64,000 nt of DNA from the NCBI GenBank assembly GCA_036755305.1, contig DAIONG010000007.1, forward strand, positions 76,047 through 140,046, read 5' to 3'. Shown here piece after piece: positions 29,657-39,011 of this stretch. The notes under the pieces were generated by a model that was not told the DNA's origin, searched no databases, and was given only the letters and a program-made list of their open reading frames with translations. Position numbers and translations under genes: made by a program. This stretch comes from Burkholderiaceae bacterium (lineage in GTDB: Bacteria; Pseudomonadota; Gammaproteobacteria; Burkholderiales; Burkholderiaceae_D). Position 1 is the stretch's first letter; every line of letters begins with the position of its first letter.

Positions 29657-30295
29657 TCAGGCCGGCGTCGCGGCTTCCTCCGCCGGCTCGGATTCAGGTT
29701 CGGGTTCGGGCTCGGGCGGCGGGGGCGGCACGGCCGGCTGCGGAACGGCCGGCTGCGGAACGGGCGGCGCCGGTTGCGCGCCCGGCCCGCCAGACTGCGT
29801 CGTCGCAACCGCCGGCGCCAGGCTGCGCTCGCCCGCGCTGAAGCGCCACTCCGATATCTTTTCCTTGTTGTCCAGGCCCTTGAAGCGCTTGTCGAAATTG
29901 GCGATCTTCAGCGGCTTGGCGTCGGACAGGCTGTGGAAGGCGACGATCCTGGTCTCGCCGTCGCCCAGGTAGACAATGCCCCACTCGGCCTTGCCGGTCA
30001 GCGGATCGACGTAGACCTTGCGCAGGTGGCGCCGCACGGCGGGCGAACGCGGGTCCTTCAGCAGTTCCGTCAGCGAGGGCGGATACGGCGAGGCGCCGCG
30101 CGGCGTGGCGGCGGCGTAGCTGTCCAGCGCCGCGCTATAGGCGGCGCCGATTTCCAGCAGCTCTTCCTCGGCCGCTGCGCGCTGCAGGAGCGAACCGACC
30201 TTGAGCGTGGCCGCGCCCACCAGGCCGATGATGGCCACGAAGATGATCAGGCCGAGATAAGTGAAGCCGGCCTGGCGACGCGCCGTCACTACCAC
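29657..30295 (-). CDS. prepilin-type N-terminal domain protein (atypical minor pseudopilin with a Pro/Glu-rich tail)
   Basis: 212 aa with a GTG start. The leader and cleavage region read RRQAG|FTYLGLIIFVAIIGLVGA, with Gly rather than Glu at position +5. The C-terminal approximately 45 aa (PAPPVPQPAVPQPAVPPPPPEPEPEPESEPAEEAATPA) are Pro/Glu-rich. Confidence 0.7.
   Translation of the reverse strand: MVVTARRQAGFTYLGLIIFVAIIGLVGAATLKVGSLLQRAAAEEELLEIGAAYSAALDSYAAATPRGASPYPPSLTELLKDPRSPAVRRHLRKVYVDPLTGKAEWGIVYLGDGETRIVAFHSLSDAKPLKIANFDKRFKGLDNKEKISEWRFSAGERSLAPAVATTQSGGPGAQPAPPVPQPAVPQPAVPPPPPEPEPEPESEPAEEAATPA
29730..29759 (-). repeat. 15-nt perfect tandem duplication inside coding sequence
   Basis: ACGGCCGGCTGCGGA occurs twice (plus strand). 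It encodes the duplicated VPQPA unit of the pseudopilin tail. Confidence 0.9.
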
Positions 30296-30663
30296 TCCAG
30301 GTAGGGACGCCCGCGCCGGTCGTTGCCGGGCGCGCCGCTGCGCAGGTTGGCGAAGCCGCCCTGCTCGCCGTCCTTCGGCGCTTCGAGCACCCAGGTCTCG
30401 CGGCTCTCGGTGACGGGGTCGAGCGGGATCTCGCGCAGGTATTTTTGCTCCACCAGCTGCTCGAGCGATTCCGGATAACGCCCGGTGTCGGAGCGGTACT
30501 GGTCGACCACGGCGCGCGTGTTGCGCAGGTTGTCGGCCAGGATGGTCTCTTTCGCGCTGTCGATGCTGGGGAAGAAGCGTGGCACGGCGAGCGTCAGCAG
30601 CAGGGCCACGATGCCCAGCACCACCAGCAGTTCGATCAGCGTGAAGCCGCGCGCGTTTCTCAT
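30289..30663 (-). CDS. GspG-fold minor pseudopilin
   Basis: The ORF track frame extends to 31560. I chose the ATG at 30661-30663. The prepilin leader is MRNARG|FTLIELLVVLGIVALL, and the G-like core reads YPESLEQLVEQKYLREIPLDP. 124 aa. Confidence 0.75.
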   Translation of the reverse strand: MRNARGFTLIELLVVLGIVALLLTLAVPRFFPSIDSAKETILADNLRNTRAVVDQYRSDTGRYPESLEQLVEQKYLREIPLDPVTESRETWVLEAPKDGEQGGFANLRSGAPGNDRRGRPYLEW

Positions 30664-30668
30664 CAAGG

Positions 30669-31148
30669 TCACCATCTGTTGTAGGGAATGCCGTTCAGGC
30701 CAAGCCGTTGCGAGGTCGAATACACGTCGTAGACGTCGTCGCCCTCCTTCGGTTCGTCCGGCTCGCTGGCGTAGCTGCGCTTGCCCCAGGTGGCGGCGTC
30801 CGACAGTTCCGGATCGGGATTGAACGGATCGCGCGGCAGGCGCCGCAGGAAGTAGATTTTTGCCTGCTTGGCGCTGCGCAGGTCGGGCACGCCTTCGACC
30901 AGCAGCTCCAGGCGTTCCGGGTAGCCGCTGGCGTCGGCCGCCTTGCCGACGCGGCCTTCGTCGCCGGCCTTCTTGTAGGCATCCAGGCCGGCGCGGATCT
31001 CGCGCAGCGCGCGCCGCAGTTCCTGTTCGTCGCGGCGCTGCACCGTGACCTCGGCCACCGGCAGCACCAGGGTGCCCAGCAGCGCGAGGATGGCCAGCGT
31101 GACCAGCAGTTCGATCAGCGTGAAGCCGCGCCGCGCCGACATGTTCAT
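30669..31148 (-). CDS. GspG-fold minor pseudopilin
   Basis: 159 aa. The leader is MNMSARRG|FTLIELLVTLAILALL and the core reads YFLRRLPRDPF. The ATG overlaps the secretin stop codon (ATGA). Confidence 0.75.
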   Translation of the reverse strand: MNMSARRGFTLIELLVTLAILALLGTLVLPVAEVTVQRRDEQELRRALREIRAGLDAYKKAGDEGRVGKAADASGYPERLELLVEGVPDLRSAKQAKIYFLRRLPRDPFNPDPELSDAATWGKRSYASEPDEPKEGDDVYDVYSTSQRLGLNGIPYNRW

Positions 31149-37339: not shown

Positions 37340-38523
37340 GACATGTCTCCCGCTAGATCGAAGATCGGCATGTACAGCAGCACCACGATGGCGCCCACCA
37401 CCAGGCCGATGGCGGCCATCAGCAGCGGCTCAAAGGTGCGCGTAAAGCGGTCGATCCAGCGCCCGATCTCGCCGTCATAGAAGGCGGCCGACTGCGTCAG
37501 CATCGGGCCCATCTCGCCGGTGCGCTCGCCCACGCGCAGCATGCGCAGCGAGATCGGCGTGGTCAATCCATTGGCCTCGAACGCGTTCGACAGCGGCTGG
37601 CCGGCCTCGATCGCGGCGCGCGCCGCGGCCAGGTTCCTGGCCAGATGACTGGACACCATCGGCTGCACGGTCTCGATCGCGCCGACGATGGTGATGCCGC
37701 CCTCGGTCAGCATGCCCAGGGTCAGGTACAGGCGCGACAGCTCGTAGACGCGGGCCCGCTCGCCGATGCCGGGGAGTTTCGCCAGCAGGCGCGCCATGCC
37801 GCCGCTGCGCGCTAGACGCCGCACGGCGGCAACCAGGCCGGCGACCAGCAGCGCGGCCGCGACCAGGATCGCGCTGCCGTGGCCGGCGGCGAACTGGCCC
37901 CAGTCCAGCAGCAGCTGCGACATCCACGGCAGGTCGCGGCCGGCGCCGTGATAAACCTCGGCGAATTTCGGCACCACGTAGCCGATCAGGAAGGCGCTGA
38001 CGCCGCCGCCGACCATCAACAGGATCACCGGATAGATCGAGGCGCTGACGATCTTGGAGCGCACGGTGTCGATGCGCTGCTGGTAGTCGATGTAGCGCGC
38101 CAGCGCGCGCGGCAGGTCGCTGGTGCCTTCGGCGGCGCGCACGATGCCGACGTACAGCGGGGGGAACAGCGCCGGCTGCGCCGCCAGCACGCTGGAAAAA
38201 CGCTTGCCCTCGCGCAGGCCGGCCAGCAGGCGTTCCAGCACGGCGCGGGTGGACGCCACGCCCTCCTTCTCGAGCAGGGCTTCCAGGCTTTCGACGATGC
38301 CCAGGCCCGCATTGAGCAGCGCCAGCAGCTCCTGGCTGAACAGCACCAGAGAAAGTTTCCCCCCGCGCGGGCGCGCCAGCGCCGCCCCGCGCGCCGGCTC
38401 GACGGCGCTGACGAACAGGCCGCGCGCCTCGACCTGGCGGCGCGCGTCCTGGGCGTCGAGCGCGTCGACGACGAGGTTCGAGATCGACATATCGGGCGCA
38501 AGGGTGCGAACGGCGAACTGCAT
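37336..38523 (-). CDS. GspF/PilC-family inner-membrane platform protein
   Basis: ORF track end is 38727. I chose the ATG at 38521-38523 (MQFAVRTLAPD...). 395 aa with two T2SSF repeats and three TM segments. Confidence 0.88.
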   Translation of the reverse strand: MQFAVRTLAPDMSISNLVVDALDAQDARRQVEARGLFVSAVEPARGAALARPRGGKLSLVLFSQELLALLNAGLGIVESLEALLEKEGVASTRAVLERLLAGLREGKRFSSVLAAQPALFPPLYVGIVRAAEGTSDLPRALARYIDYQQRIDTVRSKIVSASIYPVILLMVGGGVSAFLIGYVVPKFAEVYHGAGRDLPWMSQLLLDWGQFAAGHGSAILVAAALLVAGLVAAVRRLARSGGMARLLAKLPGIGERARVYELSRLYLTLGMLTEGGITIVGAIETVQPMVSSHLARNLAAARAAIEAGQPLSNAFEANGLTTPISLRMLRVGERTGEMGPMLTQSAAFYDGEIGRWIDRFTRTFEPLLMAAIGLVVGAIVVLLYMPIFDLAGDMS

Positions 38524-38564
38524 GGGATGCCCGGACAGGTTGCGGTGAAGCGAAAGGGAGCGTT

Positions 38565-39011
38565 TTAGTTCGAACTGATGTCGGCGTTGTCGCCGGTCCC
38601 ACCCGGCTGTCCATCCTTGCCGAGGGACAGCACCTCGTATTCGCCGCGGGCGCCCGGCGCCCGGTACTGGTAGGGATTGCCCCACGGGTCGGGCGGGATC
38701 GCCTTCTTCAGGTAGGGGCCGTTCCACTTGGCGCCGGCGCTCGGCGGCGCCGTCATGAGGGCGGCCAGGCCCTCCTCGGTGGTCGGATAGCGGCCGACGT
38801 CGAGCCGGTAGGTATCGAGGGTCTTGTCGAAGGCGTCGATCTGGGCGCGGGCGGCGGTGACTTCGGATTTGCCGAGCTGCGAGAAGTACTTGGGTCCGAC
38901 ATAGGCGGCGAGCAGGCCGATGATGACGATCACCACCAGCAGTTCCAGCAGCGTGAAGCCTGCGCTGCGTCCGGCAGGGACGGCGGCGCCCTGTTTCATA
39001 GCAAAAACCAT
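38565..39011 (-). CDS. gspG: type II secretion major pseudopilin GspG
   Basis: ORF track end is 39170. I chose the ATG at 39009-39011, which has an AGGAG Shine-Dalgarno 7 nt upstream. The leader is ...GRSAG|FTLLELLVVIVIIGLLAA. The GspG core is YRLDVGRYPTTEEGLAAL...GPYLKK...DPWGNPYQY...SLGKDGQPGG. Confidence 0.88.
   Translation of the reverse strand: MVFAMKQGAAVPAGRSAGFTLLELLVVIVIIGLLAAYVGPKYFSQLGKSEVTAARAQIDAFDKTLDTYRLDVGRYPTTEEGLAALMTAPPSAGAKWNGPYLKKAIPPDPWGNPYQYRAPGARGEYEVLSLGKDGQPGGTGDNADISSN

Follow-up and report, generated by a model that had tools for sequence, protein, structure and literature searches.

An eleven-gene type IV filament operon resembling the "unorthodox" type II secretion system of Ralstonia

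In the Ralstonia solanacearum species complex, Li et al. 2016 (PMC5080846) described a type II secretion system (T2SS) cluster of seven core and four hypothetical genes that they called "unorthodox T2SS", and this description has been repeated in later Ralstonia genome papers. One such cluster is missing from some Ralstonia strains, and our literature searches found no functional test of the Ralstonia system. We have compared it here with an eleven-gene operon (g1 to g11) located on the minus strand at positions 29657-39011 of a stretch of 64 kb from a Burkholderiaceae bacterium (GenBank assembly GCA_036755305.1, contig DAIONG010000007.1, positions 76,047 to 140,046), the whole of which we call the window. 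The operon has the order of the Ralstonia type, i.e. gspG, gspF and gspE, four small non-Gsp genes, a secretin with a tetratricopeptide repeat (TPR) module and three pseudopilins. With a probability of about 0.7, we consider it a complete member of a conserved and distinct T2SS-like branch of type IV filament machines, variously named "unorthodox T2SS", "secretion system X" and, most probably, Xcm.

Some database records name the proteins of this type "secretion system X protein GspE-like" or "Secretion system X translation initiation ...", after what we take to be the SEED/RAST subsystem "Predicted secretion system X". Other possible relatives are found in a table of Haft et al. 2006, where the homologues nearest to NE1609, an ATPase of Nitrosomonas, are PP3483 (P. 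putida), Pfl_1982, Daro_3223, ebA1226, RSp0148 (R. solanacearum) and GSU1783 (Geobacter), with E-values from 1e-160 to 1e-132, the next entries dropping to 1e-91. The Oxp system of Geobacter sulfurreducens is connected through GSU1783, which is listed in one ATPase subfamily with RSp0148 and PP3483, and Geobacter OxpG (Mehta et al. 2006) is cited as a component of a T2S system required for the reduction of Fe(III) oxide. Xcm is presented, in a passage on Pseudomonas putida, as the second T2SS of strains GB-1 and KT2440, as missed by Xcp and Hxc baits and as a novel Gsp-related pathway, the source study being that of de Vrind et al. 2003 (Mol Microbiol 47:993, PMID 12581354). We think it quite probable that the window operon belongs with this Xcm pathway. 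The xcm genes presumably run xcmT1-xcmS, xcmR, several orfs, xcmQ, xcmT2, xcmT3 and xcmX, which would map one-to-one onto g1-g11; we also assume that they are split into two loci in P. putida, that Xcm is needed for the export of a manganese-oxidising factor and that the Oxp cargo is a multicopper protein.

Gene order and relatives of the operon

The eleven open reading frames (ORFs) and the spacer in front of them are listed below, with protein lengths in amino acids (aa) and the source of each assignment.

38565..39011, minus strand: g1, GspG-type major pseudopilin, 148 aa, prepilin leader ...RSAG↓FTLLELL with Glu5 (TIGR01710, Pfam T2SSG)
37336..38523, minus strand: g2, inner-membrane platform of the GspF/PilC family, 395 aa (Pfam T2SSF, two matches)
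35633..37339, minus strand: g3, assembly ATPase of the GspE/PilB family, 568 aa, N-terminal MshEN/T2SSE_N domain (Pfam T2SSE 5.7e-120)
34813..35640, minus strand: g4, soluble actin-like protein with predicted PilM/cytoplasmic-GspL fold, 275 aa (AlphaFold model, Foldseek)
34271..34816, minus strand: g5, bitopic PilN-like protein, 181 aa, one transmembrane helix and a periplasmic PilN domain (Pfam PilN)
33714..34274, minus strand: g6, bitopic protein, 186 aa, tentatively PilO/GspM-like (weak profile matches)
33172..33717, minus strand: g7, bitopic protein, 181 aa, transmembrane helix, Pro-rich linker and C-terminal beta domain of PilP/GspC-HR type (AlphaFold2, Foldseek)
31145..33172, minus strand: g8, lipoprotein secretin, 675 aa, lipobox LLAGC, TPR (~22-170), N0/STN, N1, core and Pro-rich tail (Pfam)
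30669..31148, minus strand: g9, minor pseudopilin, 159 aa, RRG↓FTLIELL, Glu5 present (N_methyl; weak full-length GspG match, 39 bits)
30289..30675, minus strand: g10, minor pseudopilin, 128 aa, ARG↓FTLIELL, Glu5 present (N_methyl; weak T2SSG; GspG model 50.5 bits)
29657..30295, minus strand: g11, pseudopilin-related protein, 212 aa, Pro-rich tail (conserved N-terminus)
39012..39388, no strand: AT-rich intergenic spacer of 377 bp upstream of g1, common to a divergent PEP-CTERM gene, presumed promoter region (sequence read)

Reading the junctions directly, overlaps of 1-8 nt were found at nine of the ten gene boundaries, g1 and g2 being the only separated pair (41-nt gap). The overlap is of 4 nt at g2/g3 (37336-37339), 8 nt at g3/g4 (35633-35640), 4 nt each at g4/g5 (34813-34816), g5/g6 (34271-34274) and g6/g7 (33714-33717), 1 nt at g7/g8 (33172), 4 nt at g8/g9 (31145-31148) and 7 nt at both g9/g10 (30669-30675; none if the alternative ATG at 30663 is used) and g10/g11 (30289-30295). 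Because nine of the ten junctions overlap, we read the eleven genes as one translationally coupled unit. All eleven are under purifying selection, with dN/dS (nonsynonymous to synonymous substitution rates) of 0.04-0.39 in the comparison with three close relatives. The nearest kin belong to Massilia: g4 is 95% identical to a protein of M. timonae, and the best genome loci are those of M. oculi and M. timonae.

A pattern-based scan of genomes reached only the Oxalobacteraceae, and the wider distribution was obtained from a plasmid collection. Among the related Oxalobacteraceae loci with sufficient flank, g1-g11 were all present and colinear in 64/64. A tblastn search of the plasmid records with g4 found the eleven-gene layout in the chromid of Paraburkholderia largidicola and in a conjugative plasmid of Burkholderia ambifaria, and the Ralstonia megaplasmids were reached through the ATPase g3 (64% identity). 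The cluster of Ralstonia OE1-1 runs gspG, F, E, then four hypotheticals (271, 172, 180 and 170 aa), a 754-aa "tetratricopeptide repeat protein" and three pseudopilins, and a matching cluster lies at 162.5-171.8 kb of the GMI1000 megaplasmid, a position that RSp0148 would fit to judge from gene numbering. The 11 proteins of the operon have counterparts in order in both Ralstonia strains, at 26-65% identity, and the Ralstonia g4 homologue is present on 105 Ralstonia megaplasmids. Furthermore, a contig with a GC content of 49% (L084) has the identical layout although its g4 relative is only 28% identical. The g4 family comprises 1736 clusters at 50% identity with E <= 0.001; a search seeded with one distant g4 relative, P0265, returned P0265 alone, although it gave access to the genomic surroundings of this protein.

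An earlier annotation of the window, made by a model from the letters alone (the first-pass annotation), had described the same chain of eleven same-strand genes; its overlap coordinates are correct and the g9/g10 overlap has to be added to them. The conservation of this gene order among relatives, which it had proposed to check, is confirmed by the Oxalobacteraceae loci. The novelty that it implied has to be given up, the gene set being already recorded in Ralstonia, Burkholderia and Paraburkholderia, in the "secretion system X" records and probably in P. putida, where the functionally studied Xcm very probably belongs to this class. By gene order and sequence similarity, the operon is a new member of a recognised and barely studied class. 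What is new here are the folds of the four "hypotheticals", the fusion of TPR module and secretin, the PilN-type N-terminal motif and the Oxalobacteraceae neighbourhood.

Components of the machine

The major pseudopilin g1 passes the curated GspG equivalog TIGR01710 with 174.8 bits (cut-off 88.9) and matches Pfam T2SSG at 1.6e-42, while the type IV pilin models score far under their own cut-offs. Its identity is of 63-98% across all the related loci. The platform g2 scores 252 bits with the GspF model (cut-off 424), 214 with HofC and 175 with PilC. The ATPase g3 has a Walker A motif (GPTGSGKTT) and a tetracysteine motif (CxxC...CxxC), scores 492 bits with GspE (cut-off 630) and 457 with PilB, under the cut-off in both cases, and against PDB sequences it gives 353 bits with V. 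cholerae EpsE and 348 bits with Geobacter PilB. In fact g2, g3 and the secretin g8 are all under the curated cut-offs of both the T2SS and the type IVa pilus (T4aP) equivalogs. Using bit scores with curated models and PDB sequences as the measure of distance, in place of trees, the ATPase and the secretin are about equally far from the T2SS and the T4aP references.

Among the four middle genes, g4 has no match in Pfam or NCBIfam, nor in the PDB sequences even with a 41-sequence profile. Its AlphaFold2 (AF2) model has a pLDDT (predicted local distance difference test) of 92.3, and the top Foldseek matches are PilM and the cytoplasmic parts of EpsL, PulL and GspL with E-values from 1e-11 to 1e-9 (PilM 5eox, 1e-11; cytoplasmic EpsL 1yf5, 3.7e-11, with the best TM-scores of 0.58/0.65; PulL 5tkw; GspL 4pht). 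Some members of the g4 family have 447-468 aa (P0121, P0135, P0136, P0139, P0152, P0153, P0178 and P0223) and look like g4-g5 fusions, i.e. a single-chain GspL-like protein. They were not used because P0121, P0135, P0152 and P0223 are single read-archive sequences that may be frameshift artefacts at the ATGA overlap.

The next gene, g5, passes the Pfam PilN model (28.8 bits, cut-off 22.8) and its N-terminal (R/H)IDFAP motif is kept in 21 orthologues, including those of Burkholderia, Ralstonia and the contig L084. Because the N-terminal peptide of PilN binds PilM, g5 would by analogy anchor g4 through this motif. For g6 the matches are weak: the family profile aligns with Myxococcus PilO (3jc8_Oa) at an E-value of 0.05 over 130 colinear residues, and single members match Pfam T2SSM_b at 0.015 and PilO at 0.019. 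For g7, no sequence-level match was found by Pfam scans of 14 orthologues or by a profile against PDB sequences. Its C-terminal 65 residues were modelled by AF2 with a pLDDT of 92-96, and the top 13 Foldseek matches of this domain are all PilP, GspC-HR, LspC or GspB; the best is 2y4y (PilP), with a root-mean-square deviation of 2.5 A over 64 columns, and 3oss_C (GspC HR) reaches a TMt of 0.77. The small size of the domain accounts for the modest E-values (0.02-0.5), and the ranking is unambiguous. The chain ends after this HR-type domain and g7 has neither a PDZ domain nor a lipobox.

PilM and PilN together correspond to a split GspL, PilO is a homologue of GspM, and the PilP fold is common to the HR domain of GspC. 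Since the same folds are found in both systems, "PilMNOP-like" and "split, PDZ-less GspL/M/C" designate the same proteins, and the choice between them is a question of naming and not of mechanism.

The secretin g8 matches Pfam Secretin (9e-38), STN and a single N1 domain (Secretin_N). A profile of the ~150 residues past the lipobox matches consensus TPR proteins at 4e-22, and both the lipobox and the TPR domain are found in the 21/21 orthologues examined. The PilQ and GspD models give practically the same score, 156 bits (cut-off 284) and 155 bits (cut-off 351), and among PDB sequences a PilQ-family protein gives 95 bits and GspD 88; the HofQ model matches over its full length with 121 bits. 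In the T4aP, the secretin needs PilF/PilW, a TPR lipoprotein encoded separately; by analogy, g8 would carry its own pilotin and is probably self-piloting. The GspH/I/J models match only the N-terminal helix, with scores far below the cut-offs. No family match was found for g11 in the Pfam and NCBIfam scans; its N-terminus, G↓FTY(L/V/I)GL, is conserved in 21 orthologues and has no Glu5. Tip subunits of the GspK type characteristically lack Glu5.

Most of the structural description in the first-pass annotation stands. Its GspG, GspF-like and GspE-like first genes hold, g1 passing the GspG cut-off and g3 being GspE/PilB-like, and so does its secretin followed by three pseudopilins, to which the lipobox and N-terminal TPR domain of g8 are added. 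Its PilM/N/O/P-like reading of the middle ORFs is right for three of them, by fold or by Pfam, and plausible for g6. The opposite possibility that it had named, that these ORFs are ordinary GspC/L/M homologues, is neither borne out nor clearly avoided: the folds are shared with GspL/M/C, while GspL is split and the PDZ domain is absent. Its statement that there is no prepilin peptidase and no retraction ATPase agrees with a crude motif scan of the window, in which the prepilin-peptidase motif G.GD[VFILMA]K was absent from all six frames and the secretion-ATPase Walker A occurred a single time, with no second copy. Family scans of the other large ORFs in the window gave only housekeeping, exopolysaccharide (EPS) and neighbour genes.

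Neighbourhood and candidate cargo

Upstream of g1, the window contains the following larger genes.

39389..40147, plus strand: NF038120-family PEP-CTERM protein, candidate cargo or partner, divergent from the operon (NCBIfam 224.9 bits)
40193..43336, plus strand: S8 subtilase, 1047 aa, with I9, PA, fn3_6, PPC and Sec signal peptide, candidate cargo (Pfam)
44502..45098, minus strand: NF038129-family PEP-CTERM protein, the most conserved neighbour (NCBIfam 170.9 bits)
45110..48145, minus strand: ExeM/NucH-family extracellular endonuclease (LTD and EEP domains), best cargo candidate (NF033681 505.5 bits, Pfam)

A TLD-type PEP-CTERM gene is also found upstream of g1, on the operon strand. The sequences of NucH, the S8 subtilase and the PEP-CTERM proteins all start with a Sec-type signal peptide, that of NucH beginning at the Met at ~48064. 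We have counted these neighbours in the 75 loci that have at least 5.5 kb upstream of gspG. The NF038129 gene was found in 53/75, the nuclease together with the NF038129 gene in 52/75, the NF038120 gene in 28/75 and the S8 subtilase in 25/75. In the 17 loci inspected for gene order the nuclease and the NF038129 gene point in the direction of the operon, and in two loci (L074 and L079) the pair directly abuts gspG. An EpsA-like LuxR regulator is found upstream in 36/75 loci, the window not being one of them, and scores 165.8 bits on the XrtB/PEP-CTERM-associated EpsA model (cut-off 170). Both the ExeM/NucH nuclease and the PEP-CTERM proteins are likely cargo in the Oxalobacteraceae, with the S8 subtilase in addition in the M. 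timonae group, and the EpsA-like regulator likely controls the operon. Export of PEP-CTERM proteins by this machine is plausible because the GlyGly-CTERM and MYXO-CTERM proteins cross the outer membrane via T2SS. Our literature searches linking Rhs or PEP-CTERM with T2SS found no study of this system.

Other genes of this neighbourhood can be described more briefly. In the locus L070, the EpsA-like regulator is a 231-aa LuxR-type protein encoded immediately 5' of gspG (5856-6551, plus strand), with a PhoB-type response regulator before it. The subtilase of the window (40193-43336) has an I9 propeptide and a PA domain inserted within the catalytic domain; plant subtilases typically combine I9, PA, fn3_6 and PPC domains in this way. 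Two small ORFs (43422-43904, minus strand, and 44148-44486, plus strand) with lipoprotein-like signals (...GATAAC and ...LAACGG) separate the subtilase gene from the NF038129 gene. At the other end, next to g11, a histidine kinase and a LuxR-type response regulator (27753-29650) had been taken in the first-pass annotation as a dedicated two-component system. Only the closest relatives, L002 and L004, retain this pair, and we have rejected it as a part of the secretion system since it is not conserved.

Outside the Oxalobacteraceae the neighbours are others. Ralstonia OE1-1 has, divergent and upstream of gspG, an unannotated ORF of 1832 aa (L083:2557-8055, minus strand) with nine RHS-repeat matches and a Peptidase_C39-like domain, and in one Ralstonia paper rhsB was lost along with one unorthodox T2SS cluster in strains non-pathogenic on tomato. 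In B. ambifaria the neighbours are RHS proteins, IPT/TIG proteins and a cytochrome c peroxidase, in Paraburkholderia a PKD protein and a di-haem peroxidase, and in L084 a repeat protein of more than 2200 aa. The peroxidase gene adjoining the cluster in Paraburkholderia (L081:22913-24667, plus strand) and B. ambifaria (L082:3814-4884, plus strand) codes for a di-haem cytochrome c peroxidase of the CCP/MauG family. This neighbour may matter, as Xcm and Oxp presumably export metal-oxidising or multicopper proteins. A lytic transglycosylase is attached to gspG in Burkholderia (L082:4998-5645, plus strand) and Paraburkholderia (L081:18760-19392, minus strand) and is found in neither Massilia nor Ralstonia. 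In L081, the place of gspG is taken by a fragment of an IS630 transposase, and gspG and the transglycosylase are inverted at the opposite end of the cluster.

Further away in the window, an EPS cluster (49041-59297, minus strand) codes for a GDP-mannose pathway enzyme, a second sugar-phosphate nucleotidyltransferase, GalE, an EpsA/WecG-type transferase, a heparinase-like-domain protein and GT4 transferases that weakly match PEP-CTERM/XrtA-associated families. Among the ORFs scanned in the window, none was identified as an exosortase gene. Two types of NADP-isocitrate dehydrogenase, the dimeric Icd (17483-18832) and the monomeric one (19463-21730), are encoded close to each other on the minus strand.

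Possible mechanism and comparison with known systems

The gene content, folds, domains, conservation and synteny described above would be consistent with the following machine. A prepilin peptidase from another part of the genome would process the prepseudopilins g1 and g9-g11. The ATPase g3 would dock on the actin-like g4, held at the membrane by the (R/H)IDFAP peptide of g5, so that g4 and g5 together act as a split GspL. In turn, g5 and the PilO/GspM-like g6 may form a pair surrounding g2, the GspF-like platform, and the beta domain of g7 may link this inner-membrane assembly with N0 of the secretin. The lipidated g8, with its own TPR module, would pilot itself to the outer membrane and replace the separate lipoprotein of PilF/PilW type. 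A short ATP-driven GspG pseudopilus, primed by the three minor subunits (with g11, which lacks Glu5, perhaps at the tip), would then push folded periplasmic proteins out through the secretin.

Several points weigh against taking the operon as a complete secretion machine of this class. The components g2, g3 and g8 fall under the curated GspF, GspE and GspD cut-offs, g8 has one N1 like PilQ/HofQ and not the GspD-type N0-N3 series, and the PilO/GspM assignment of g6 is weak. The orthology to Xcm and Oxp rests on the E-value list of 2006 and on the gene content presumed for Xcm, and no experiment on the window operon or on the Ralstonia operon was found in the literature. In addition, since the neighbours differ between lineages, the cargo cannot be read from the machine.

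The operon could instead build a pilus, a machine similar to T4aP or to the mannose-sensitive haemagglutinin (MSH) pilus making a GspG-like surface fibre for adhesion or flocculation together with the EPS and PEP-CTERM genes found nearby. The PilM/N/O/P-type alignment complex is present, the N0-N1 secretin resembles HofQ/PilQ (it matches the HofQ model from end to end and its best PDB sequence match is of the PilQ family), and the PilB score of the ATPase is near its GspE score. We consider a pilus improbable, however, given a major subunit that passes the GspG cut-off and leaves the type IV pilin models far below theirs, four pilin-like proteins that are all short, the lack of a retraction ATPase and of a PilY1-type or large tip adhesin in the operon, and the description of the studied relatives Xcm and Oxp as secretion pathways. 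The resemblance of g8 to the DNA-uptake porin HofQ over its full length and to the PilQ-family secretin in the PDB, with NucH as the most conserved large neighbour, could also suggest a competence-type pseudopilus and secretin working with ExeM/NucH in DNA uptake or in the processing of extracellular DNA. Against this, family scans found no ComEA, ComEC or DprA near the operon in the window, the versions of Ralstonia, Burkholderia, Paraburkholderia and L084 have no nuclease neighbour, and nucleases of the ExeM/Xds type are expected to be ordinary secreted enzymes, all of which makes a role in DNA handling very improbable.

Lastly, the operon could be a duplicate of the housekeeping T2SS, degenerate or silent and without an independent function, as the missing prepilin peptidase, the several components under curated cut-offs and the loss of one such cluster in some Ralstonia strains might suggest. 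This we find hardly credible with a dN/dS of 0.04-0.39 for each gene, overlapping junctions that are intact and a gene order that is exact across genera, down to 28% identity. A wider proposal can also be made on the side of secretion: the Xcm-type machine would be a separate and ancient type IV filament branch, combining a T4aP-style PilMNOP complex, a pilotin-secretin fusion and a GspG pseudopilus, and in the Oxalobacteraceae it would be the outer-membrane route dedicated to exosortase-sorted PEP-CTERM proteins and to ExeM/NucH, under an EpsA-type regulator. This is speculative and, in this full form, rather unlikely. If true, the PEP-CTERM system would gain the translocon that it has so far lacked, in parallel to the GlyGly-CTERM and MYXO-CTERM proteins.

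Whatever the cargo, the machine is not new but widespread and almost unstudied, and four of its eleven proteins are still "hypothetical" in public records. Their assignment to PilM/GspL, PilN, PilO/GspM (tentatively) and PilP/GspC-HR, with the TPR-secretin, provides an architecture that can be tested for the unorthodox T2SS of Ralstonia, a plant pathogen, and of its relatives. The neighbourhood of nuclease, PEP-CTERM and EpsA-like genes gives a concrete cargo hypothesis in Massilia and suggests a possible answer to how the PEP-CTERM proteins cross the outer membrane.

Component scores, folds and gene order all agree with the earlier view that the operon fits neither the canonical Gsp nor the T4aP layout. 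We have taken the canonical T2SS core set from PMC4672498. With it the operon shares a GspG major pseudopilin, a tetracysteine ATPase, a polytopic platform, a secretin, a connector of GspC-HR type and an actin-like module of GspL type. The lipoprotein nature of its secretin is also found in the Hxc system, where HxcQ is a lipoprotein. Unlike in the canonical system, the GspL-like fold is split over g4 and g5, the connector g7 lacks both a PDZ and a coiled-coil domain, three minor pseudopilins stand in for the GspH, I, J and K set, a TPR module and a single N1 are found in the secretin where GspD has N0-N3, no GspO is present within the cluster (to judge from the motif scan of the window), and the matches to GspD, E and F are under the equivalog cut-offs though the Pfam family domains are present.

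The likeness to the T4aP lies in the separate PilM- and PilN-like genes, followed in that order by the tentatively PilO-like gene, the PilP-like gene and the secretin, in the N0-N1 core of the latter and in a TPR lipoprotein module tied to it. However, the major subunit is of GspG type and not a type IVa pilin, the PilP-like g7 has a transmembrane helix as its anchor where PilP has a lipid, the secretin is without AMIN domains, carries the TPR module as a fusion and stays under the PilQ cut-off, and the operon lacks PilT/PilU, PilY1, the FimU-PilVWXE set and a large tip protein. The MSH pilus is also different, with an MshL score of 100 bits (cut-off 250), no MshM-like gene and an order unlike mshIJKLMNEGF. 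It is with the unorthodox T2SS of Ralstonia that the gene order is identical and the protein lengths similar, the difference being that the Ralstonia cluster is borne on a megaplasmid next to the gene for the 1832-aa RHS protein, whereas in the window the neighbours are the nuclease, the PEP-CTERM proteins and the subtilase.

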